A stretch of DNA of 63,765 nt, the filler included, from Sluysia triapertura (taxonomy: Eukaryota), in the NCBI GenBank assembly GCA_046118255.1. It is 5 parts of 5 records of this genome, joined end to end, with 100 filler letters (N's around TTAATTAATTAA, not from the genome) between each part and the next. Parts side by side here need not be neighbours in the genome. Positions count along the whole stretch, not along the records: positions 39,566 to 52,474 come from JBJNIA010073166.1; 4 more parts are not named here. One strand, given 5' to 3'. The translations under genes were made by a program, and so were the position numbers. Under the pieces are notes generated by a model, which was not told the DNA's origin, made no database searches, and saw only the letters and a program-made list of their open reading frames with translations. Shown one piece after another: positions 13,812-52,474 of the stretch. Every line of letters starts with the position of its first letter. Within the stretch, counting starts at the first letter, position 1.

Positions 13812-14052
13812 CTTTAGATAGAGCAGTCAAACGAGTCATTTTTGGTCGATTCTGGCTAATAATTGAATCAGTATCATCTTTTTGACTTGATCTATCAGAT
13901 TCACCATTTCCACTACTACTTATTGCTGGTGTTTTACTACGACTTTCAGTTTCATCTTCTTCATCACTACCTATCCAAAATGCTTCACCGTAAAAACTAT
14001 CTTCATCTGGAATGTGTGAATCATCGTCACAACTGTTGACTCCGTAAAATAC
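13812..14052 (-). other. Probable isolated exon of an unknown acidic/Ser-rich protein
   Basis: Open frame FYGVNSCDDDSHIPDEDSFYGEAFWIGSDEEDETE...LTALSK bounded by ttaacag acceptor and gtaaaa donor; flanking exons not resolved. Confidence 0.35.
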
Positions 14053-14496
14053 TGTTAAAATTATCTAGATTATGCTTAGATAAAGTAGTTGTTTAAATCT
14101 GAGCTTTTTTGTGATTACAAAAAAATACTATCACATAACTATCTGAAACTTGTTCAGTTTTTTACTTTTGATCTTGACAATTTTCATCAAACTCTTTCGA
14201 TTTTGGTAACACTGAATCCTTTATCAATTTCTTCGCCAACGATTTATTACTCATTAAATAAAAATCAGATCAATTATCATATAATATTATAATTAATTAT
14301 TAATTTGGACCGACTAAGTAAGATTCACAATTTCAATATCAAATAATTGAGTAAAAAATTTTTGTTAATAATATTGATATTTTTGGTTTTAAAAATTCTA
14401 TTGTTTAGCGTACCCAATTAGAGTCTCAGAAAGAATATTTAATAGTATGAACTTTGATTGGGTGGTGTGCAAGAGGCATTGATGCCAAATCGAGAC

Positions 14497-14594
14497 CGAT
14501 ACAACTGATGATTGACCATCATCAGTGTTGGAACTTTAATGAAAAATGTAACGTATTGTGTCAACACTGGTGATGGTAGCAACCAGGTTGATCG
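14497..14594. ncRNA. Candidate long RNA hairpin (pre-miRNA-like or MITE remnant)
   Basis: Arms 14515-14530 accatcatcagtgttg and 14562-14577 caacactggtgatggt pair fully with one G-U on the plus strand; the stem extends imperfectly to 14497/14594. Confidence 0.35.
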
Positions 14595-15277
14595 TCATTT
14601 AATTGACTTTATTTTAATTTATATTTTATAAAAATAATTTAATGTTTAATAGTACTAACAATAATAATAACAATAACATCAACGATAATACTGTTATTAT
14701 TATTATTATTATCATCAAACAACGCATAAACCTTGCTTTTTAAATAAAAGACACAAACTTTTCTTTCGAATTCTTTTATTTCTGACATATTAAAATACGA
14801 ATGAAAAATAAAAACTATTGGTATTATGCGAAGGAGCAACGGTAACGTGGTATACTGTGCTTCAGTTATCGTTACTGTTTCATTTCTGAAATTAATTTCT
14901 TTAAAGCTATATTAAATTTGTTTTTGAAGATAAAAGGAATGATTTACGTTGTAAGTGAAATGAAGAATGTTAGAATAGATTCTTCAGCTTTATTTAAAGT
15001 TTATAGTTGAAAACAAGATTTATGCATTGAATATAATGGTTTGAAAGACTTGTTAAAAGGTTATAGTTTATTCAATTTAAAGGACAATTACAAAATAAAT
15101 CTTGGCGTATTTACGATGTTGTAAAAATGTTGATAATGGTTATGTGTTGATTAAATAGGTTTGATTCGATGTTGTAACATAATGTTTTCTGTTTTAGGTG
15201 TTTGTTAGTGTTGTTGAATGGTGTTAATTTATTTGTGATTTACATATTGATTGAAAACATTGTCCGAATCCGAAATT

Positions 15278-16213: not shown

Positions 16214-16596
16214 TTATCTGTGGATCCCTTTGAGCCTGATTTTTTTTGAATCAGAATTCATTTCAATACCCATTTCATCTAAAACCTGATTTATTAATCT
16301 TTCAGATTCTTGTTCGTCACCTCCTTCTCCAAGTACATCGTCGTTTGTATCTATCATCATTTCTCCTTTCATCTCTATCAAGTTTGATTCCTTTTCAAAT
16401 TCCGTCATTATTTTTTGTAACAGTGGCAAGTTCATAGATTCAGTCATACGTTGCATCATTTTCGTAACACCTTGCATAGCCTGGGCCATAGCATTTGTCG
16501 ATCGCAATATCTGTATTTTTAAGGAAACAGCCTGAATATTTGCTTTCATCAAAATAAACTTCTTGATATAATTCCTAGTTCTAACTAAATCTTTGA
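16214..16596 (-). pseudogene. CHMP2A: ESCRT-III CHMP2A/Vps2 internal fragment
   Basis: KDLVRTRNYIKKFILMKANIQAVSLKIQ...AMAQAMQGVTK...MNLPLLQKIMTEFEK...QVLDEMG is CHMP2A-typical; the N-terminal helix and C-terminal MIM region were not found nearby. Confidence 0.85.
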
Positions 16597-17017
16597 CTGG
16601 ACAATTTTGAAAAATTTTTTAAAATATTTTTTGAAATGACTGTCTATAACTCTAACCTTTGTTATGAACTTTCGTTAGTTCATATAAACAAAAATGCATA
16701 AAATGAAATAAAAATTGTAATTAATAACCTTGACGAAAAATCAAACACATAGTTCAAAATACAAAGTTTTTTAAAAAATTGCAACCTAAAATTATCAGCA
16801 TTAAAACAAAAATACGTAAAAATAAAATAAATAATAATAATTATAAATAGATTTTGTAAATAAAATGCTTTATCTACACATACACACATATATACACATA
16901 TATACATGCATATATGCAAATGTATTAATAGAAATGAAAATCCGGATATAACATCACAAAAGGTATATTATTGTTACAATATGCTACAGTGAAATAATTA
17001 ATAGTAATAAAACAAAA

Positions 17018-26110: not shown

Positions 26111-27375
26111 ATGGAAGTTGATGCATCTAATGTAAATGCCTATTCAAAAGCAGCTGGTGATATAAAAATTCTTACCGATATACTAGAATTGTTGTTTAAA
26201 AAATATGCTTATTTTAATATTTCTACGAAAATTTTGAATAATTTAAGAGAATTGGAACTACCTGACGGTATTTTTATTAATATTTATTATTATTTTTAGT
26301 TAAATCTCAGTTGTTTTATATCGTTTCGGCTGCAGTTAAGTTTACTCATTCAAATGATTTTTTAAGAGATAAACAAGATGAAAACAAAAACTTAATCTTG
26401 TTTAAGATATACAAAATTGATGAATTGAATTGTTGCTTTTATCATTTTAATAAATTGTTTGAGTCAAGTGAAGTGAGATTGGCCTGCATTAATTTTTGGA
26501 CTACGAAATATTTGTTAGATACATTAATTGAAATACCGAATCCACCTTCAAAATATTTACCTGAAAATGAGCTAAACAGACTTTGTGATTATGTTAGTAT
26601 GCTATTAATTGAAGAATGTAACATTCAACCTGTATCAACTCCTGTTACTATATGTGGAGATATACATGGACAGTTTTATGATTTACTTGAGTTATTTAAT
26701 ACAGGCGGTTCTATTGATAATACAAATTATATATTCATGGGGGATTTTGTAGATAGAGGATATTATAGTCTAGAAACATTAACTCTATTATTAGCTTTAA
26801 AAGCGAAACATCCGGAAAAAATCACATTATTAAGAGGTAATCATGAAAGTAGACAAATTACTCAAGTTTATGGCTTTTATGATGAATGTCTGAATAAGTA
26901 TGGTAATGCAGAACCGTGGAAAAGATGTTGTAAATTGTTTGATCTTATGGCTGTAGCAGCTATAATCGATGATAAGATTCTTTGTGTTCATGGGGGTCTT
27001 TCTCCAACAATTTCAACGTTAGATCAAATTCAATTATTGGATAGAAATCAAGAAATACCTCAGAAAGGTTCGTTTTGCGATTTAGTATGGTCCGATCCAG
27101 ACGATATGTTTCAAAATTGGCGTCCCAGTCCGCGTTGCGCTGGGTATTTGTTTGATGAATTGAACTCAATAGCTGACAATATTGTTGATTATGGTTACTC
27201 TTTCTTGTTTATTCAATGTTTACTAGTTATTTTGTTTTATTTAAAAACTTTATGCTTATTATATTTATATACAAATTTTATATTAATAAATCTCGTAGAC
27301 TATTTAGGCGTTTTAATTTCATGTTTATTCGTAATCATTTCGGGCCTTAAGCCCTTCTTGTTCAAATTTAAATAA
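26111..27375 (+). CDS. PPP6C: Chimeric, C-terminally truncated PP6 catalytic subunit-like gene; exons 26111-26267 and 26300-27375
   Basis: 32-nt GT-AG intron keeps frame; [73 protein letters not shown] and DLVWSDP are PP6-type; homology stops at SPRCAGYLF with no RAHQ or SAPNYC. May be a pseudogene. Confidence 0.75.
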
Positions 27376-39565: not shown

Positions 39566-39634
39566 TGGGTGACGTAAAATATGGGTGACGTAAAATATGG
39601 GTGACGTAAAATATGGGTGACGTAAAATATGGGT
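39566..39634. repeat. 16-bp tandem repeat (TGGGTGACGTAAAATA) x4 at contig start
   Basis: Four perfect copies plus a partial copy, read directly. Confidence 0.95.
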
Positions 39635-40612
39635 TCGACAATTAATAACAGAAAATCATCAATATCACGAAGTCAATTTATCCAATTATAAATGAGACAC
39701 CAAGTCATTTTTAATTTTTTTACTACCACGGCGAATAGCAAGTTTTTTATACCAAGCTCAACAACTTTACCACTAGCAAAAATTGTATTTCAAATAATAT
39801 ATGGCAAGAAATATTCAAGGTTCAAGCACGCTTTATTTACTGAACTAAGTTGAAAGTTAAATTAATGGATTCATCCATTTTAAATATGATGGTGCAATCA
39901 ATTTTAATTCTGAGTGGATATGGATTACATTCTATTGGTTTCTTACGTCCCATAATTCTGAATTTATTATTTACAATAATAACTAATGAATAATCTTTTA
40001 ATTTTCATATTTATTGTTTTGGCTTCAATTGTTTAAATTTTAAATGAATAATATCATCTAAAGCGTTTAATATTATTTAATTAATTAATATTTAACAGAA
40101 TGACATAAAAATGACTAAATGATTTCTTTGTACTTATTTATATATGCATAAATTTTTCTGTACATACGCATTAATAAAAACATGACTAAATTCTTTGTTC
40201 CATTTGTAACGATGTAAATATGTAACGATGTAAATTTGTAACGATGCAATGTTTAATATTTGTTAATTTAATAAATTTAATTTGATAATTTTAATTTAGA
40301 TTAATTAAAATTAATATTAGAATAAATAAATAGTTATAAGAAAAGTATTTATTATTATTATTAAAAAATATTATGTAATTATATTGTAAGTGTTTAATTT
40401 CAATTTCAACATGTAATTAAAAATGCAATTTCATGTAACAAATAATAATTATTAAATTAAATTGAAATTATTATTTAAAACAAAATTATTATTATTATTG
40501 TTTAAAAAAATAATGTAAAAACTTACATCATTGCTTATCATCTTTACAACGAAACATAGTAACAAGAAATACAACAAAAACAATGAGATTTCGTTTAAGA
40601 CTACGCAATTAT

Positions 40613-40745
40613 AACTGTTGGGGTAAAAAGGCCTAAAGTGCCATTTGGTAAAATTGACTATAATGAAATAAAATCGTTAGACGTGGCTGATAGCTCAGTG
40701 GTAGAACATCGAACTGCGCAGCAAGAGGTCCCGGTCAGTCCATTT
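40613..40745 (+). repeat. tRNA-derived repeat, copy with B-box deleted
   Basis: Near-identical to 50122-50268 but lacking gttcgatccccgc. Confidence 0.85.
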
Positions 40746-41520
40746 AAATGTTACATTCGCAAAGACCGAGCAATTTTTGCAATATTTTACTAATCTTCTA
40801 TAATAATTTGCCAATCCTAAAAACTTTATCTTTTTAACATTATTTGGTTGTAGAAACTTTACAACCTTTTCTATATTTCTTGGATTTGGTTTTATACCTT
40901 CGTGTGAAACTATATGTCCATAAATTCTACTTGTTCTTCTGCCCAAATACGTTTTTTTGGTTTTATTTTTAATCTTACCACTTCTAATCGTTTTAAAGTA
41001 TTGTTAAAGTGTGTTAAAATATTATTATATAGACCATTACATTTTTACAACCTGATAAAACAAAATTCATACATCTTTGAAATGTTGCTGGAGCACCAGT
41101 TAATCCACATAGCATCTTTTCACACTCATATAATTTGTCTCCACATGAAAAGCTGTTTTATGTTTATCTTTTTCTGCTATTTCAATTTGCCCCTAACCAC
41201 TTTGAAGATCTAATGTAGTAAAATATTTAGAATTTCGCAATTTATCCAACATTTCATCTATTCTTGGTAATGGAAATATGTTTTTTCTTGCAATTTTTTA
41301 ATTCTATAAAATCAATACAAAATCTCATAGTACCATCTTTTTTCTTAACTAATAACACTGGCGAGGAGAGTGGTAAAAACTTGGTCGAATAACTCTAGCT
41401 TTTTCATTGTTTCGATTTGATCTTTCATTTCTTGTTGGTTACACATAGGTATACGAAGTGGTTTCTTTCTGATAACCTTGTCTTCTAATAATGGAATTTC
41501 ATGTTTTATTATTACTGAAT
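40746..41520 (-). pseudogene. Ty3/Gypsy reverse transcriptase and connection remnant
   Basis: HEIPL, SPVLLVKKKDGTMRFCIDF, FPLPRIDEMLDKL, YFTTLDLQSG, GHIVSHEGIKPNP, FLGLANYYRRLV and FKWT; YxDD region not recognisable. Confidence 0.92.
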
Positions 41521-42059
41521 CACCTATATCATATTTGTTTTTGGCTATTGCCCATGGATATCGATAAATAACTTTGTATAGTAACTCCTTTTGGTCTTAT
41601 TTTTTATTTCTATTTCTTCATAATCTTCTTCATCATCGGTATCTATATTTCTTTGTAAATTAATATTGTTTATAATATATTTAATATTATTATTAAATTA
41701 TATTTGATACCAAATTTATTTGGTATAGCTTATTTATAGCTATAGTTTATTTATAGCTTACTATTTCTCCTAATTTCGTTCCTGCATATAACCATTTGTT
41801 TTCTTCTGCATAATTTATTATTCTTATTGGAATATTTCCATCGCGAATTCTACAAAGAGAATCTGCTATACAAATATTTAATTTTTCTTGTTTATTCTTT
41901 GAATCAATAAACGTTATTGGACCATTTCTGAGGCTATTTGTTTTAATTTGTACAATATATTCAGTTCTACTTAATATCCAATGATGTTCTTCTAATATAA
42001 CATCATCATCATCATCATCATCATCGACTGGTCGATCAGTATGACTATCCATTAATCTT

Positions 42060-42360
42060 GCTTTATTAAAGTCTTATAAGACTCATTTTAATTGTGATAA
42101 CACATCCATTCCTAATATCATAGTTCAGGACATTTTCTCATTACTCTACATTTAATTTCAATTTTATTATTTCCAATTTCACATAATACTTTTAAACCTC
42201 CGAGAATTTCGATTTCATCTCCTGTTACTCCTGTTAAATAAAAATGTTGTTTAGACAGATTATTAAGTTCTTTCGTAGTTAATTTTGATTCGCTTCGGTA
42301 TCTACCAATGCTAATTACATTCTTCCATTTACTTTCATATCTACCGTTGGTCTTCTTGCA
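42060..42360 (-). pseudogene. Retropepsin aspartic protease remnant
   Basis: RPTVDMKVNGRM*LALVDTEA (degenerate DTGA), LTGVTGDEIEILG and ILGMDVL. Confidence 0.85.
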
Positions 42361-42519
42361 CTATTATAATTATTATTTGAACAGATCATGTAAATCAAAT
42401 TTATTGATGGATATAGACTTTGTTTTAATTCATTTATTTCTTTTACTGTGTCAACATTAATTGTTTGTAATGCTATTTCTTCTGTTTGTTTTCTTTCTTA
42501 AGAGCATTTAATTGAGAAT

Positions 42520-44362
42520 GTGTATGATGATGTGTATAAAATGGAAAACACCCTATTATTAGTCTCCATGTAAGACCTGACATTTTGTATATACCTACCA
42601 CCGAAAATATCTGAGATATTATAAAGAGCGATAACTTTAATTATTATATATTCCGATTAATCCCGAATCTCGTCCTAGAACCAGAAAGCTTCCCCATATT
42701 TGCTTTAGTGTATTTTATGCAGCTTTCTAAAAATTATCCGGCCCTAATAATAATTCAAAGTTTATTTTACCATTGGTTTATCTACGATTTCTGTTAGGTG
42801 TTTTGACCTTTCGATTGGAAATAATATTTCATACCAAGCTGCTTGAATATCCTCATTTGAATATATTCCCGATCTTGAAATAGATATGAATTTTAATTTT
42901 GATTTCAATTCTGTTAATTGAATTATTTCTGGAGTTTAAACTTGACTCCTGTGGGGTAATGATATCCATAAATTATCATCAATTTTGTATTCTGGTGCCT
43001 TCACGTTGGAACAGTGTAATATTTTTAGTTTCAGCTTATCAGTTGGTACTATTATTCTTGTAACTGGTTCTAAATAAGTTGGTTGATTTTTGTATGTAAC
43101 TGGTAATTCATTGTACATTCATTTACTTGTCGGATTTGAACTTCAACTTTCTTACATTTATAAGTATATAGGACATCATCCATTAATCTACCAAATACTC
43201 CTTCTAACGGAAGTAATGGTGCTACAAGATCTAGGTTAGTAATTGCTACTGCTAATTTAGTACTTAAGATTTCTTTATTTAATTGACAATCCTTTGTTAT
43301 CATTGCTTGATAAACTTTTTCAAGCGACATCAATCCTAAATGGCAATAGAAATCTATTTTATTATTAAAGTATGTATTTAATTTCAAATTCTTTGTATCT
43401 AAACCTTTTTTAGCTTGAATTATTTTATTTTCAGACAAATAAATACCTTGGTAATTTGTTTCTGTAATTTTTTGACCATATCTAATTAGTGACTTTTTGA
43501 AAAAGTATTAATCCATCTTCTTCTTTATTCGCCATTAGTAATGTCGGTGTTTCCACTTCATTAAATCGTTTTCTTTGTGGTGAATCTAAATTATCTTTGT
43601 GAATTTGTTTTTTATTTATTTCTTCCTCTGCTAATTCATCATCGTATTGATACATAAATCCTGAAACTAAATTAAATTTGATTTGTGTTAAAAATATTAG
43701 ATGACATTGAAAATTCATATATTAGTGTTGATTCTCCAGCATTACAACTAGTTTGATCACTTTTACAAAATGGTCGTGACATCACAGTTCCTTTTTCTAA
43801 ATCAAAACTTTCATTGAAAGATCTTAGACTCACTACATATGTTTCTTGTGCTACACATTATTATAAATTTTCCCTTAGTGTTCTATCGAACCCCTTTCGC
43901 AAGTGCATCTGATAATACAATACCTGCAGTTCTTACATTATAAATTATTTTTACATTATTTTTAATTTTAAGTTTATCTCCTTTATTTAAACTAATATAC
44001 TCAGTTTCAAAAGCATCTCGACAATTACTTGGTAAAATCTTAAATGGTTTTAACACATTAGACATATCAATAATTGATAAGTGATTATGATGTCAACAAT
44101 GCCATATAACTACAGATCTTTTAACTAAACATTCTCGAACTAAAGTTATAACCAGATTTCCTTCTTGGTAAAAGTTTAGTATTCTCATATCTTTTATTTT
44201 AACTCTATTATGTTATGCTTCGGGACAATCTTCAGTGTCCAATAATGAAAATTTTCTTCCAATCTGTGGTTGACTACAATCAAAAGCTTTAATAGCATTT
44301 GTTTTATGGATTCCAAGTAAAGCTGATAGAACAATTATGGAAAGTATATTGTTGATTGACAT
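42520..44362 (-). pseudogene. Chuvirus (Jingchuvirales)-like class III fusion glycoprotein, env-like
   Basis: Signal peptide, then AFDC..FSLLDTEDC, CLVKRSVVIWHC*HHNHLSII (cf. YCGMHSHxS), CRDAFET, DCQLNKEIL, YTYKCKKVEVQIRQVNEC/YNELPV, YLEPVTRII, SGIYSNEDI..ILFPIE, IWGSFLVLG and a TM region; order matches recalled chuviral G; many stops/frameshifts. Confidence 0.85.
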
Positions 44363-44455
44363 TCCAAATTGTGGATTTATTTCATTTGACTTTCCATTAT
44401 TAGTAATAAATTTTGATATTAAGTTAAGTGGTTCTTCTTTTGTTTTTTCTTTAAT

Positions 44456-44731
44456 AATATTTTTCCATCCTCCTTGTTCTTTTATCCAGGTACTAAATTT
44501 CTTATCCATAAAATTTATAACACTATCTAATATTTCTTTATTTACCAATACAGCTTTATTACATTGGAACATTACATAGGCTATTATAATTTTAAGTCTT
44601 TCTATATTAATACCAGCATTAATTTGCTTTTTATTAATCTTTTGAGTTTTACCTTCCCATTTATCAATTAACTGTTGAATTCGATTTTTCATTCCTTCAA
44701 TTTCTTTAATCTGTTCAATTCTTTCTTCCAT
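44456..44731 (-). CDS. Bcl-2-like domain in frame with the glycoprotein signal peptide (part of ORF 44213-44731)
   Basis: BH2-like WIKEQGGW at 44465-44488, 40 residues after BH1-like GINIERL (cf. GVNWGRI), with amphipathic helices between. Confidence 0.6.
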
Positions 44732-45224
44732 GAGTTTAATGAATATTTCTTGGATTCTTGCTTCATTTGGTTGTTTTGTTAATCGATTTTCTTCTCTTAC
44801 TTTTTGTTCTCTTCATTTTCTATCTTTCTTAAATTCCCGATATCTCTCATGCGTATAACTCATAAAGACTTCTTCTTGTTTATTTTTGAATCGATTTGTA
44901 TCTTAATCTAATCCAGTGATGTATAATTCTCGTAAAATAGCATTATTTTCTTCATATGTTATCAATTTCGAGTAGTCATCATCTTCTTCGATACTAGATT
45001 CTTATCTTTTTCGTTCCTTCTTAAAATTCTTTCTAATACTTTTAGATTCTTCTTCATCTTCGTAATATTCATCTTCATGTTGATCTTCGTATTCGTTACA
45101 ATTTATTTGTCCTCTCTCATTTTTATTATTATCGTTAAACCTTACTTTCTATTAGGGCTTTGATATTTTTGTTGTTGAGGGCCCCTTACCTTAGAGAAAT
45201 CCTGACTAAAAGTGTTTTGCTTAA

Positions 45225-46260
45225 CTTACCACAATTTCTTGTAGAGTGCCTGTATTTATTACAATTATCGCAGTGTATTTCCCCGTCAATATTAGTTTGA
45301 GCCCTGTCATTATATCTATTCGGACTTTTACTTCGACCTCGATAATTATTTATATTTGTATTTGGTGGCTATATTGATGCTTGTCTCTGTTCGATTTCCT
45401 CTGTTATTCTGAAAACTTCTTGGCTGAAAATTATTTCCTCTAAAATTATTATTAAAATTTCTCGGATTACCCCTATAGTTAAAAATACCTCTGCGTGGAA
45501 GATTATACCTATAGTTACTATTATTTCTATCATAATTATTACTTCTATTATCATTATATTCATTATCATTATTATATTCATTATAACTTAAAGAATCATT
45601 CTTATTCGAAAAATTATTATCATAATTATTGTATCGATTATTAGAATTAATGAATTTATCTCTATTAATATTATTTCTTGTAAGTTTTGGGCTTTTGCTT
45701 TCACCATCACTAACATAATTAATATTATCTTTATTTTATTTTTATCTTCATCTTTATATGAAGAATTTTCTATACTTCCTAATTTTTTAACTAATTCTTT
45801 GAAAGATACTTCTTCGATTAAAGTGGCATAAGTTCTCAATTCAGGACGTAAACTACATTTTAATTTATCTTTTAAAATCATTTCTTTTTTGTCTTCAGCA
45901 ATCTTTGCGCATATGAATTCGTGAACAGTTTCATTAGCTTTTTGCTTTGTTAAATTTAACATTTTATTATAATATTTTCCCATGTCATCGTGGGAAATTT
46001 CCTCGGTAAATGCATTAACAAAAGAATTCCAAATTGCTTTATCTTGTTCATTTATGTCTTTATAAATCTGAATCGCCACACCAGTAAAGTAATTTTGTAT
46101 TCATTTAACTTTTTCTAATTTGTTCCATCCATTAGCTTCGGCAATTTTATAGTTCTTCCTCTGCTCCAGTAAATTTGCGCATATCTGGTAAAGCCATTAA
46201 AGGACGCATTTCTCTTGCTAATTGTGAAATGCAATCTCTAAATCATTTGGCAAAGCCATC
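45225..46260 (-). pseudogene. Ty3/Gypsy gag with CCHC zinc knuckle
   Basis: RKFTG, AEANGWNKLEK, YFTGVAIQIY, WNSFVNAF, KQKANETVHEF and LRPELR; N/R-rich linker; CDNCNKYRHSTRNC (CX2CX4HX4C) at 45231-45272. Confidence 0.88.
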
Positions 46261-49200
46261 TAGTTTCTTAATTTAGCTCTGTAATTGTCAAAAGGTATCA
46301 TTTGTTTAGCAATTTTATTCAAATCTTACAACTCTTATCAAGTTAGGATTTAATAATATGCTTTAATCTTTAAATCTTATAAAACTCTGAAATTAATTCG
46401 TATTAAATTAGTAATTACATATAAAAGTAGTCAAAACTTATAAAACTTATTCAATAATAAAAACTTATTCGCGTAAAATTAAAACTTATTCAACAGGTTT
46501 ATTATAAAACATGTAATCTTTTAGTTTATATATTTGTATATAAAACATATTCAATAATGACTTATTTGACTTAAGGGACAATAAAACTTATGGAATAATC
46601 ATTTATAGTCTTTAAAAATTATAGCAATTTATACAATTTATAGTTTAGGATACTTTTGCTTATCAAAACTTAATAGGGTTATTTTTATAATTTACTTTCT
46701 TTTATATTTTTATTTTATTTTAATGTATGTTTATGCTTCTGATCCTCACTTTTATTTATTTTAATAGTTTATATTTTGCTCGTGAATTCTCTATGATACT
46801 GAACTTACTCACTAAATGACCAGAACATAGATTTTGCAGCTAAAAATTAAGAAAAGATTTGGAGATTCATTGTAAACCTAGATGAGGATTGCAAGAGTTA
46901 ATAGATAACAAAACTTGGTTATGATACATAAAAGTCGTGATAGTTTATATAGGTTATATTAAAAAATTTCTTGTATTAATATTTAATAAACTTAGTTATA
47001 TGTTAAATCTTCTTGATTTATATATATGAAAAAATTCGTGATACTTGATATAATAATTTATTAGTTATTATGTTAAATTCTTTGTTAGATATATTATTTT
47101 GATTTTCTAGAAATTATTTTATTTTACTCTCATTTAATATTACTAGTTTATATTACTATATATTACAAAAAGCTAAAAGTAACAAATCTCCACATTAATA
47201 TAACTGATAAAAGATATAAGTAAAGCCAAACAAAAGTAGCAAAAATATTCCACATAATAGCAAAATTTTCACATATTTTAACTAACAAAGTTCTACAGTA
47301 TCTTAACTTCATGAAATGCTTTGCTTTTAGTGAAGGTCGAATGTTGAATATCACTTATGAAATATCACAGTCAAATATAATGTTAAAAATGATTTTTAAA
47401 AATTTATAAAAAGTATGATCGAAACTGTTAAAAGAAATTAAGGAAGAGTTTTATGAACAATTTAATGAAAATATAAAGTCACATACCCACATTGACAGTG
47501 TACGTAGAAAGAAAAACAAAAGCATTCATAACTTGCCAGCTAGCTTATGCTATTTTTCTTTTGATTAACAAATTTTATTAAAGCCTTTCTTTTTAATACA
47601 ACAAAATTATATTCACCCTCAAAATCTACAATTCACATTTTTAAATTCATGGTTCAATACAAACATTACCAAAATCATATCATTTTTCAACATCACACAA
47701 TTACTTTTTAGAACGTACCAAAACATAGACTATATTTATCTTCTTCACTTTCACTAAACCACGTTCTTTTCAACGCATTTTCAAGTCATAACCTCCAAAT
47801 ATTACTTTTAAAAATCCACATTATATTTTAAAATCCACATAAAACATTATGTTATTTCAAAATACGTAAATCATAAGCGTTCAACACTCAAACTCATCTT
47901 CAGTCAAAAACATTATTTAGTACTTAAAAGTTCACTTTAAACATCTCACACATTATGGTACAATATTAAAATTATACTCAAATTTAAAATTCCTTAAGGG
48001 TTTTAAATATGCTAAGAAATATTTTATGACAGAAAGAAAGTTCGTGTTAATTTTCAAAAATGAACTTATGCGTTTTATAATAATAGTAATAATAATAACA
48101 TTCTTGTTGTTATTATTGCTATTATCATTTTTATTTTTATTAATTTCAAATCACAATAATTCTGAATCAGTAATTACCACTATCAATGTTGAAAATGTGG
48201 GTTAATATGTACAAATTCTTGTCAACATTGATAGTGGTTCGTATGTCAATGCAAAAATAATTATTGTTATTATTGGTTGTCCAACCAGAGTGTACCTGAT
48301 CATTATTTTTATCACTCTGGTTGAACAACCAATCAAGACAATCTCGCATGTATAACTATGATGTTGTGTATTAGTGGTTTTTGGTGATTTTATATGTGCT
48401 GAAAAGTAGTCATAAATATTAGTAAATACAGTTACAATAACAATTTCATTATTTGGTGACAAAAATTTAATATCTTCTCTTTGGTAAAAACAATTAAAAT
48501 TATTGACTTGTATTTTATAATTAATAAGCAGTTATATTTTATTTTTAAATCGAAAGGATACAATTGACGAAACTCTTACGATCACATTGTTAAAGATAAA
48601 TAATTCAGATAAACGTTTTGTAAAACGAGCATCATCTCTAAACCATATTTCTCAATCAAACATACCTATAAACATTAACACGATGATTTCTACAACTGAG
48701 TCGGAAACTACCACTCCACAAAATGAATAACATGGTATTCAGGAAAGACGAAAATGTTTACATATCAATATTCCACAAGCATTTGATGAAATCTTCATTT
48801 GTTATATTTATGTATATGCTCTCTATTTTAGATTCAATGTTAATGTTTCAAAGGAATTTATTAATCGAAACTTAGAGCATTCCAATACTTCTGCAAATTG
48901 CTATGTAATTATGTTTAATGTTATGAAACGTGAGATTTTCAATTTCAGTATCACCACCACCGATTTCAATAATAATGTCAGATCAAACATCGATCACTAT
49001 ACCAATATATTTCCTCTATGTTATTGAGTTTTAAAAGCGAATGGATCAATTGAAAATTTAAATGAACATGCATTTTATAAATTTATGATGCTGTTGTGTT
49101 TAGAATTATTAAAAAATGATAGATGTATTTAGTCATGTTGAGGAAATCTATCTAAATCAAAGTTTAAAGTTCGCATCGATAATTGCTAATAAATTTGACA

Positions 49201-50121
49201 ACTACTCTTTTCCACGTAAAAAATGCTCGTGGCCTATGTTCGAAGCAAGAAAAATAATTATTAAACAAAATTATGATCAATGCTTTTGTCAAAAGAACGA
49301 TGTATACATTTCCAAGATTAATTTCAAACAAAGTTGTACGATTTAATGTATCCCAATTAGATATCGATTACAATTACAAATATAATGAAGAATTGGATAT
49401 ATTTCCTATATATTGATTCCTAGTTCCTGATAAACATAGTAATTTTAGTCATGAATCTAAGAATGTTTTGTATCCGCTGTCGGTTTCTGCCAATTCAATG
49501 CCTCATAACTATTTTTGTAATTCATTAGATTCGAATCAAAATAGAACAATAGTGATATAAATGGTAAGTTTGCAAAATTTGGACTTAAGTGCATCTATGC
49601 ACATACTGTTAATCAATTATCTAATAGTGGATTCGAATATATGACTAACATCAATCACGTGACTAGAATTACAAGTCTACTCGAATGCATAAGGATATCA
49701 ACTGCAGAAATATCTGGTAACGTCGGATCATCGGCTAATAATTCAGTAAATAAATTTTATATTTATTATTAAATTTTATTTTTATATTTATAATTTAATT
49801 TTTGTTTCATTTTTAGATAGTGGAATGTGGCTAATGAAGAGTACAATACAGAGAATTATCCATTTTAACATTCAAAAATTTAGATTTTTTGTGTCAAATA
49901 AAAATTTTAGCATTCATGTATTATTAGTTATTTTTTTTAACTTATAAAATCTTCGTTGTTATTAGATTATATAAAGTTTAAATTAAACATTATATATGTA
50001 AAAATTAAGATAGTGTAATTTAATTTAACATTTAAAATAAAGTTAAACTTTTTATTAAATTACTTTAAATTACTTGTCTTGTTTTATGTAAACATTTGTG
50101 TTTATACTTTTATAAGGAAAC

Positions 50122-50268
50122 AACTGTTGGGGTAAAAATGCCTAAAGTGCCATTTGGTAAAATTGACTATAATGAAATAAAATCGTTAGACGTGGCTGAT
50201 AGCTCAGTGGTAGAGCATCGAACTGCGCAGCTAGTGATCCCGGGTTCGATCCCCGCTCAGTCCATTTT
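50122..50268 (+). repeat. tRNA-derived repeat (tRNA-like core 50193-50264) with about 70-bp conserved 5-prime flank
   Basis: A box TAGCTCAGTGG, D stem GCTC/GAGC, B box GGTTCGATCC, T stem CGGG/CCCG, then TTTT; the anticodon stem does not pair, so it is not a canonical tRNA. Confidence 0.8.
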
Positions 50269-52474
50269 ATGAAGTCTAACACAACGATTAATTTTAAAAT
50301 TGTATATAAAAGAATAATCTTAAAAAGTAATGTATTAAGTATTCAAACTGCAAATAATCTGAGCCGAAATTTATTATTGAAAGAATTTTAATCAAAACAT
50401 TAAACATTAAGTTCTATAATGAAATTATCTATATGAACAAGTTATATTACCTTTCAATTTTAATTAGGTTTAATTATTCACTTATTTTAAATATTCATAA
50501 ACAACTTGATTCAGAAAACATCGTTTAACCTTATTCTCAAATGCCTATGTAATAATAAATTAAACATCAAACGTAACTCTTACCCTCTTATTATTAGAAT
50601 CAAGCAAAATTATGTGATACTTGTATTACTGTAAAATGTATGACTGTGCAATCTTGAATAATTTCGTGTCACTTAATATTAGATATCCAACAAATATAAT
50701 TTTAATATCAAACAAATTGTTAACAAATATAACCATCTACACAATAATTTTTATTATTGTTTTAGTTTTATTACAGGAAATAGTTACAATAACAATTAAT
50801 TAAAGTATGTATCGCTAATATTTATTATGAAATAAATCCTCTAAAGCATTTATAATATATTTCGTAATATTTCTGAACTAGGAAAAGCTTATCTTCCTTT
50901 TAAATACTTCAAATATTTCAATAATTGGGCATTCAGTAGTTGTACCTTTAAAAAACATAAATTTTTTTATTATCACTGTTTATGCTGTTAAAATATTATA
51001 TCTTAACATTTATTTTATAATCCGTTTATTGGATTATATTCAAGAATTTGTAATTTATCATTCTACTCTAGATTTTTGTAGTTATGAAGAAGTTATAAGG
51101 TTTTTATATTAACATAATTTATTCTAAAAGATAAATTAATTGAAAATATGGTACTGATTCATCTAATAATTTAGCAAACTTAATTTTTTTCTTAAAGTAC
51201 ATTAAGTATTACATTGTTCTTACAAAACAATCAATATTTATAATCCCTAGATAAAATAATTATATTAAATTTCGTTAAAATATTTTACCATTTATTATTA
51301 TTAATAAATAAAAGTAAGATTTATTAAAACAAGATTTTTATATAATTTATCAATAAATCAAACATTTTATTTAATTTTAATTTAAATAAAAATTTTCTCT
51401 CTAAAATATAATTTTTCTTTTAAATTAGACTTAATGATATACAAAAAAAATTATATATAAATTCATCTGTTAATTAAAAACTTCTCAAAATAATTTTAAT
51501 ACAAATTATTTGAAAAAACAATTTTGTTTTTTTATATTTAATATTGAATTTGATTTTTTAAATAAATTTTCTTTAAATCTATTTATTGTAACTTTTTACA
51601 GTATTGTTATATTTAATTTCTTTTTGTGAAATTTTAAAATACGAGAAATAAATTTAAAATATGTTTTAACGTTTATTTATTGCTGAATATTTAAACAGTT
51701 TATTACAAAATTTTGTAAAGAAACTATAAAAGATACGAACAATGTTTCCTAAATTGGCAATTTGTTATGGCTAATAAACTTAATTTTTTAATCATATTAC
51801 AATAACACAATTTATAATTCATAATTATAATATAATTTATTATAAATATGTATCATAAATATGCACTATAAGAAAAGCAAACAATTACTAACTAAAACGT
51901 AAAATTGAATATATTATATTTATTGCAAAAAAAGCTACATTTAGAGATAAATTATTGTTTATTACAAAACATTTATATAGAATTATGTTATTTAGAATCA
52001 CAACTACGAAATATTTATTTGTAGATAGATTATTGAATAATAACATTATGCTCTAAAGCAAATTCATTTGACTTTAGTTTATGATGACAGGATTCTGTAG
52101 GATTCTTTATATTTAGTGCGTATATTCATACCAGTCAAGATATTCACTTCCGCATATTTTTTACCTTCTTTACATAAGTAAAACTTAATGATATGGTCTT
52201 CTTGTAATTCGGCGATCTTTTCATTGAATTGTTGGATTTGTTTTTAGAATAAAGCTTAATTTAATGACATCGAAAGTGAACTGACAAAAATCGAATTTAA
52301 GATTTCTTCGATCAAAGAAATTCTTATTGTGAGAATAACAAGAGAATAAATGAAAAGTTTATTGTGAGTCCACCAACGTACTGGACTTACCGGTTATGGC
52401 CAGCCGTTGGATTTTACTATGTAAAGTGCGAAATTTACTTAACAAGATTAGTCTTATGTCTATCTCACTTCTGG

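Follow-up and report, generated by a model that had tools for sequence, protein, structure and literature searches.

On the minus strand of the window, by which we mean the whole stretch of 63,765 nucleotides analysed, lies a decayed and 3'-truncated copy of a Ty3/Gypsy element, likely from a flatworm. Its intact relatives encode Gag, likely a Bcl-2-like domain, a class III envelope glycoprotein (Env) and Pol in one frame. We put the probability of this reading at about 0.88. The parts follow one another as gag with a CCHC knuckle, Bcl-2-like domain, PF24664 glycoprotein, protease remnant and Ty3-type reverse transcriptase (RT). They extend over 5.5 kb from gag to RT, with one knuckle and one protease. 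The initial annotation had placed gag with its knuckle, glycoprotein, protease and Gypsy RT in this order on one strand, and both order and coordinates hold. It had also seen a full-length glycoprotein between gag and protease; the glycoprotein is borne out by PF24664 and by tblastn tiling, but the Bcl-2-like domain in front of it had been overlooked.

The layout is real and already published for planarian elements. The suggestion that it might be undescribed falls away, as the layout is in print in PMC6431247 and PMC13524379, which also describe exceptions to the rule that env lies 3' of pol. The copy itself matters little, as the fossil of an architecture already in print. Of greater weight is the family, in which an env held in frame between Gag and Pol implies that the polyprotein is threaded, unlike in retroviruses.

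Gag, protease and reverse transcriptase in a broken copy

The gag remnant (45225..46260, minus strand) comprises a capsid region, an Asn/Arg-rich stretch and a zinc knuckle, and is frameshifted. It was recognised by tblastn with the gag regions of relatives, and positions 46151-45735 are matched by those of P0014, P0012 and P0034 (E 3.5e-8, 5e-6 and 4e-4). Pfam searches in three frames detected no domain in the gag region. The single CCHC knuckle, C-x2-C-x4-H-x4-C, can be read directly at 45231..45272 (minus strand). Translation of 44813..45143 (minus strand) gives an acidic/basic low-complexity linker with stops, which shares its frame with the Bcl-2-like domain.

A single aspartic protease remnant is found at 42060..42371 (minus strand), with a Pfam RVP match of E 0.061 and ungapped matches to the proteases of L001, L002, P0006 and P0057. 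Its catalytic motif is degenerate, and the protease signal is weak when taken alone (35-41% identity to relatives' proteases over 23-34 residues at 42371-42261). A conserved domain in the spacer between protease and RT (41750..41980, minus strand) is 27-37% identical to five relatives and takes the position of the dUTPase-like domain of Burro; Pfam returned no dUTPase match in the spacer. The RT remnant (40735..41600, minus strand) ends in the connection region and has a degenerate catalytic motif. The Ty3 RT 4ol8 is the best of its three solved matches (E 2.6e-16), and by RT type the element belongs to Ty3/Gypsy. A pol of BEL/Pao type is ruled out, since the RT matches Ty3 and the RNase H and integrase domains of the relatives are of Gypsy type.

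The sequence is free of N gaps from 39568 to 52467, and numerous stops and frameshifts break the copy. RNase H and integrase are missing from it, pol ending at about 40735. A tRNA-like repeat (40613..40734, plus strand) truncates pol there; it belongs to a 122-nt pair of 96% identity whose second copy lies at 50122-50264, with an Rfam tRNA match at 50193-50264 (30.6 bits). No LTR pair was found in the window, which is expected as the 3' half of the element is missing. The copy is dead and yields no working product itself.

Env as a standing part of the element

The env remnant (42476..44292, minus strand) is of chuvirus-like, gB-type class III character and reaches from the ectodomain to a C-terminal transmembrane (TM) helix. 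PF24664 (Monjiviricetes_fusion) matches the unbroken ORF 43507-43073 with E 1.5e-14, and the N-terminal part of env, with stops read as X, with E 1.4e-15. Although the reading frame has stops and six frame changes, intact relatives tile it by tblastn from signal helix to C-terminal TM (44356-42476) at 27-60% identity. The best env identity in the searched sets is 53%, and no close relative was found there. The glycoprotein of Tacheng tick virus 4 (P0039), a chuvirus, is of the same PF24664 family and aligns in its N-terminal cysteine pattern, with 22-24% identity to env; it differs in that its gene is a free viral one whose signal is N-terminal, outside any retroelement polyprotein. The env of P0002, 50% identical to the window in mid-env, gave a model that matches herpesvirus gB (best E 8.3e-14), and every match listed was a herpesvirus gB. 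Judged through this modelled relative, the element's Env is predicted to be an HSV gB-like class III fusogen, and these two lines of evidence sustain the earlier assignment to chuvirus-like class III fusogens.

The same order is found in intact polyproteins. P0034 contains in one ORF a CCHC knuckle at 312, the glycoprotein at 532-1122, protease at 1217 and RT at 1533, followed by RNase H and integrase. L002 is an ORF of 3,703 codons with two CCHC knuckles, Ubl, glycoprotein, two proteases, RT, RNase H and integrase. Glycoprotein followed by protease in one ORF is also seen in P0003, P0004, P0006, P0008, P0011, P0012, P0030, P0043, P0056, P0057 and L001, and the full order of protease, RT, RNase H and integrase in P0006, P0008, P0034, P0043, P0057, L001 and L002. 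P0034 and L002, with gag, env, protease, RT, RNase H and integrase each in a single ORF, uphold the gag-env-pol Ty3/Gypsy lineage of the initial annotation, with env inside the polyprotein region. Nothing points to the splicing of env that it had considered, as intact relatives hold env in frame. To call env inserted is misleading, because the clade has env between gag and pol as its established layout.

Had a chuvirus glycoprotein gene integrated just once into an ordinary Gypsy copy, or were env part of an element nested there, the match of env to chuvirus glycoprotein (22% over 169 residues) and an isolated second env fragment at 55675-55430 would fit. However, mid-env is far closer to retroelement-borne envs than to free viral glycoproteins (42-53% versus 22-26% identity), and P0034 and L002, where the order is identical, largely refute such an event. 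The env start is moreover in frame with the Bcl-2-like domain upstream. Env and RT also share their close relatives. Over an RT piece of 49 residues the identity is 66-73% to P0006, P0008, P0057, L001 and L002 and 48-50% to P0034 and P0043, and mid-env ranks relatives in the same way (42-50% versus 30-31%); all RT pieces summed give 41-50% identity and do not separate the relatives. Branching in the env trees is mostly without resolution. The strand composition of env (A 0.41, T 0.31) agrees with that of gag, protease and RT (A 0.42-0.44, T 0.28-0.29), while the 3' flank has A 0.39 and T 0.40. This shared A-rich bias counts for env as a native part of the element, and we regard a one-off event as hardly credible.

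An assembly chimera joining two repeat families is scarcely more probable. The scaffold is of short-read style with N gaps nearby, and the family is of high copy number. In run X1, 19,914 contigs lie on the region, of which 15,472 are below 95% alike, so many diverged copies exist; none of the listed contigs spans the env-protease or the Bcl-2-env junction whole. The summed contig depth over gag and the Bcl-2-like part is about 1,600-15,000, far below that over most of env. Such unevenness would follow if sister families have env and RT in common, and intact relatives run collinear with the window across the junctions: gag, Bcl-2-like domain and env are matched in order by P0014, and the stretch from the Bcl-2-like domain through env and RT by L001.

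The Bcl-2-like domain and a possible topology

Inside a 199-codon open frame (44812-44216), about 470 nt (about 155 codons) after the knuckle, a helical domain was found at 44450..44760 (minus strand); it has a BH2-like motif, and its BH1 is degenerate. It sits directly before the glycoprotein signal helix in the same frame, and is likely of Bcl-2 type on the basis of profile comparisons. The Pfam PF00452 match (E 4.6e-4, 21 bits) lies under the cut-off of 31.4. Family profiles match Bcl-xL with E 1.6e-4 and 9e-5, and a profile built without the window protein recovers the window domain. When solved structures were searched with the two profiles, all 60 of the 60 matches listed were Bcl-2-family chains, mostly of one protein. 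The predicted model of the window domain has a pLDDT of 52.6; Foldseek with this low-confidence model gave nothing significant (top match BAX, E 1.2, TM 0.15), and an Atlas search pointed elsewhere (DUF4238, 0.91).

The domain is optional cargo, as many relatives do not have it. A BH2-like motif stands ahead of env in 9 of the 22 relatives with at least 100 residues upstream, and has been lost in P0002, P0056 and L002. Among unrelated relatives the domain is only 8-27% identical, and neither the window nor the relatives show an intact BH1 signature, so that an anti-apoptotic role is not assured. Some poxvirus proteins of Bcl-2 fold lack anti-apoptotic action and serve as immune modulators. The element may be as described and yet carry before env a Bcl-2 fold of this kind (a membrane/matrix-like adaptor or an immune modulator), or a domain that is not Bcl-2. 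The degenerate BH1, the loss of the BH2 motif, the divergence and the Foldseek result speak for this, whereas the uniform profile matches speak against it, as does planarian Burro1, which is reported at second hand to have a functional inhibitor of apoptosis belonging to a different type. We hold it to be a serious possibility, though not the favoured one.

Hydropathy indicates an internal hydrophobic signal helix with a predicted signal-peptidase site at the start of env (44293..44365, minus strand), where cleavage is inferred. The only hydropathy peak of P0001 lies at residues 150-168, and a comparable hydrophobic stretch precedes the ectodomain in the compared relatives. In the ancestor a single polyprotein would have been made. 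The helix that follows the Bcl-2-like domain would serve as its internal signal, threading the ectodomain into the ER lumen, and the C-terminal TM helix would bring the chain back to the cytosol; Env would then lie between a Gag and a Pol that both remain in the cytosol. Release of the parts would fall to signal peptidase together with the protease of the element. Host Bcl-2 proteins are tail-anchored on the cytosolic face. The spent signal helix would likewise leave the Bcl-2-like domain tail-anchored on that face, where it would likely delay the death of the host cell. The presence of such a domain beside env is noted in the literature, and no assay of it was found in the sources at hand.

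Relation to Burro, errantiviruses and the host

The giant Gypsy-like planarian elements Burro and GYPSM1 (Grohme 2018 and Jurka 2007, as cited in PMC6431247) offer the closest comparison. According to PMC6431247 (Arkhipova and Yushenova 2019), Burro encodes gag-BCL2-env-PR-RT in one ORF of about 4,900-5,100 codons, with MATH, BIR, ankyrin, SMC and Ubl cargo, two to three knuckles and a dUTPase-like domain between protease and RT. Shared with Burro are Gag with CCHC, the BCL2-like motif, the spacer domain, the single reading frame (here in relatives), env between BCL2 and protease, with Burro env matching fusion glycoproteins of mononegavirus type, and high copy number with decayed fragments in related species. 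The BCL2-like motif directly before env, a Burro trait, is found here at sequence level; the domain and the env start share a frame and the remainder is frameshifted. In contrast to Burro, this element is compact: it has a single knuckle and a single protease and lacks that cargo (Burro1 compared by description only). MATH, BIR, ankyrin and Ubl cargo gave no Pfam match in 46260-45000 or 44812-43811, and the Ubl region of L002 no tblastn match within the window. With giant size and this cargo absent, the element is Burro-like rather than Burro.

The compact layout (gag, short linker, Bcl-2-like domain, env, one protease) could mark a separate small lineage ancestral to giant Burro instead of a decayed or deleted Burro. 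The short distances from knuckle to Bcl-2-like domain and from env tail to the single protease (about 130 nt) would suit this, as would the lack of close relatives in the searched sets. But compact relatives already exist, P0012, P0030 and P0034 without the Bcl-2-like domain and P0014 with it, and internal deletions are possible in a dead copy; we consider a separate lineage unlikely. Still somewhat less probable is a wider proposal, by which the minimal ancestor of giant Burro is a compact lineage that was once abundant in flatworms of a group that may lie outside the dugesiids. The signal helix of its env would at the same time anchor a functional death inhibitor of Bcl-2 type in the membrane by its tail, coupling fusogen to survival factor. 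A compact member could help to show which parts arose first.

GAG-ENV-POL errantiviruses are described from flatworms, nematodes and bryozoans in PMC13524379 (Chary and Hayashi 2026); those of Platyhelminthes with an HSV/gB-type env include Smed_errantivirus_1 to 6, and in Schmidtea each family has 1-215 intact copies. The main text of that article has no match for Bcl and mentions neither Burro nor polyprotein. Part order, gB-type env and env family are shared with these elements, but the published copies are intact and the window copy is broken and truncated. P0007 matches the window env (E 2e-19) and, compared by eye along some 110 residues, is nearly identical to the env of Smed_errantivirus_1 in the supplement; through this comparison the window env appears to belong to the family of published Schmidtea element envs. 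The mosquito BEL/Pao elements with chuvirus glycoproteins (Dezordi 2020) are likewise LTR retroelements carrying a chuvirus-like class III glycoprotein, but belong to another superfamily, the RT here matching Ty3.

No close named relative was found for DcpS. PP6, a neighbouring host gene in the window, falls in a group of 12 rows with 6/6 named flatworms (support 97/99), in a tree that holds no other named spiralian (no named mollusc or annelid), and with such a tree a flatworm host is likely, not proven.

Order and state of the element

The initial annotation read gag, glycoprotein, protease and RT in this order on one strand. The order is real. The assembly is gap-free from 39568 to 52467 and all element parts lie on the minus strand; the annotation overlooked a Bcl-2-like domain before the envelope (env). 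Gag (46260-45225) closes with a CCHC knuckle (45272-45231). Three relatives match it through their own gag regions (E 3.5e-8 to 4e-4), although a Pfam scan of the gag region gave zero matches. An acidic linker leads to the Bcl-2-like domain (about 44760-44450), upstream of a hydrophobic helix (44365-44309) that adjoins the glycoprotein start. The glycoprotein reaches its TM region, down to 42476. What is left of the protease (42371-42060) comes next, then a spacer domain and finally RT (41600-40735), for which Ty3 RT is the top match among solved structures (E 2.6e-16).

The window copy is dead: env by itself changes frame six times and holds several stops, the motifs of protease and RT have degenerated, and pol is cut off at a tRNA-like repeat ahead of RNase H. 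No LTR pair was found in the window. The repeat is present at 40613-40745 and 50122-50264, with about 70 nt of common flank preceding the tRNA-like head. The end of the 40.7-kb copy has about 11 nt in common with the connection sequence of RT, suggestive of joining through microhomology.

The envelope as part of the element

Two separate glycoprotein pieces match PF24664 (E 1.5e-14 and E 1.4e-15), and the window env aligns with the glycoprotein of the chuvirus Tacheng tick virus 4 at 22% over 169 residues, in agreement with the chuvirus-like glycoprotein first described. Mid-env identity is 42-53% to retroelement envs versus 22-26% to free G. The AlphaFold model of the relative P0002 (mean pLDDT 66.7, with higher values for the ectodomain) matches herpesvirus gB in all rows shown (best E 8.3e-14, 9% identity). 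Env is thus a class III fusogen, as judged through this relative's model.

Env belongs to the element. The element's A-rich strand bias is also present in env. With the unbroken mid-env ORF as query, 535 candidates yielded three proteins, two of which have a protease after the glycoprotein. The frame holding the Bcl-2-like domain and the env N-terminus found 52 matches among 1.84 billion representatives. Among the 19 matches taken into the domain scan, P0034 carries knuckle, env, protease, RT, RNase H and integrase on a single chain, P0006, P0008 and P0043 span env to integrase, and P0011, P0012 and P0030 carry gag, env and protease. At the metagenome locus L002, a 3,703-codon ORF contains two knuckles, env, two proteases, RT, RNase H, integrase and a weak ubiquitin-like match; L001 resembles it, but its 5' end is open. 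P0034 and L002 bear out the gag-env-pol lineage suggested initially.

A 49-residue RT piece of the window shows 66-73% identity to P0006, P0008, P0057, L001 and L002 and 48-50% to P0034 and P0043, and mid-env orders the relatives alike (42-50% versus 30-31%). Congruence of env and RT is suggestive, because the gap fades when all RT pieces are summed (41-50%) and env trees mostly lack resolution. From sequencing run X1, which may come from the same source as the window, 19,914 contigs fall on the region, most <95% alike, which indicates many diverged copies; none of the listed contigs spans a whole junction.

Another piece of this env family, in a worse state of decay, lies at 55675-55430 on the minus strand. 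Its identity to relatives is 31-40% (E down to 2e-6), and its surroundings gave no match to gag or pol. P0006, an env-protease-RT-RNase H-integrase polyprotein, is deposited as Flavobacteriaceae MAG protein HBK71150.1 and probably stems from animal DNA that was binned as bacterial. The intact relatives L001 (2-10282), L002 (97-11208), P0008, P0011 and P0057 have two to several tandem aspartic protease domains and a TM-containing extension beyond integrase. The downstream ORF in L001 and L002 is presumably a 3'-5' exonuclease, by motif. In P0037 a related env follows an apparent BEL/Pao-type Cys-His region, which we take as gag-env order in another superfamily.

The Bcl-2-like domain and a possible membrane anchor

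The 199-codon frame upstream of env matches Pfam Bcl-2 at E 4.6e-4, under the curated cut-off, as do the relatives P0005, P0021, P0023 and P0026. Family profiles find Bcl-xL among solved structures (E 1.6e-4 and 9e-5); Bcl-2-family chains fill 60/60 rows shown, mostly one protein. A profile made without the window protein recovers the domain at 44716-44450. Of the 22 relatives with at least 100 residues upstream of env, 9 have a BH2-like motif there; the signature of BH1 has degenerated. An Atlas search pointed away from Bcl-2, and Foldseek on the low-confidence domain model (pLDDT 52.6) gave zero significant matches. The domain would likely be anti-apoptotic, with a non-apoptotic adaptor role as a serious rival.

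By its anatomy, the ancestor would have made a single polyprotein. The helix upstream of env would act as an internal signal that sends the ectodomain into the ER lumen. Pol would come back to the cytosol by way of the C-terminal TM of env. Both flanking helices exceed the hydropathy threshold in P0002, P0006, P0008, P0012, P0034, P0043 and P0056; in other relatives one or neither does. After cleavage, the signal helix may hold the Bcl-2-like domain at the cytosolic face of the membrane, much as a tail anchor does for host Bcl-2 proteins.

Published relatives and the host

The layout, which the initial annotation could not confirm as undescribed, is already in print (PMC6431247, PMC13524379); what stands out beyond it is the compactness of this copy and the idea of a tail anchor. 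Burro, the giant Gypsy-like elements of planarians, carry gag, BCL2, env, protease, a dUTPase-like domain and RT within one ORF. Arkhipova and Yushenova (2019, PMC6431247) present them as the first example of an env lying in frame between gag and pol; this env matches mononegavirus fusion glycoproteins, and Dugesia japonica is said to have fragments in decay. The Burro1 apoptosis inhibitor that was tested is, by a second-hand account, an IAP (PMC13465017). GAG-ENV-POL elements with gB-type env are described from Nematoda, Bryozoa and Platyhelminthes, and flatworms account for nine (Chary and Hayashi 2026, PMC13524379). P0007, among the window's best matches, is near-identical by eye to the Smed_errantivirus_1 env of that study. 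The window element works like Burro but falls short of it in size and cargo, and we therefore place it, as a decayed copy, among the flatworm GAG-ENV-POL gB-type errantiviruses.

A PP6 piece (26548-27159) groups with all 6 named flatworms in a 12-row group (support 97/99), separate from arthropods, vertebrates, a cnidarian and a sponge, in a tree of 24 of the 120 listed matches from which named molluscs and annelids are absent. Long unbroken host-gene pieces, some of them possibly captured cargo, encode the PP6 catalytic subunit, a Snf7/CHMP2-like protein, a DEAD-box helicase and DcpS (26281-27375, plus strand; 16214-16618, 8363-8746 and 5615-6607, minus strand). Three long overlapping frames at 2221-4219 (plus strand), strongly skewed in C and A and free of Pfam matches, are possibly a decayed mobile-element ORF.
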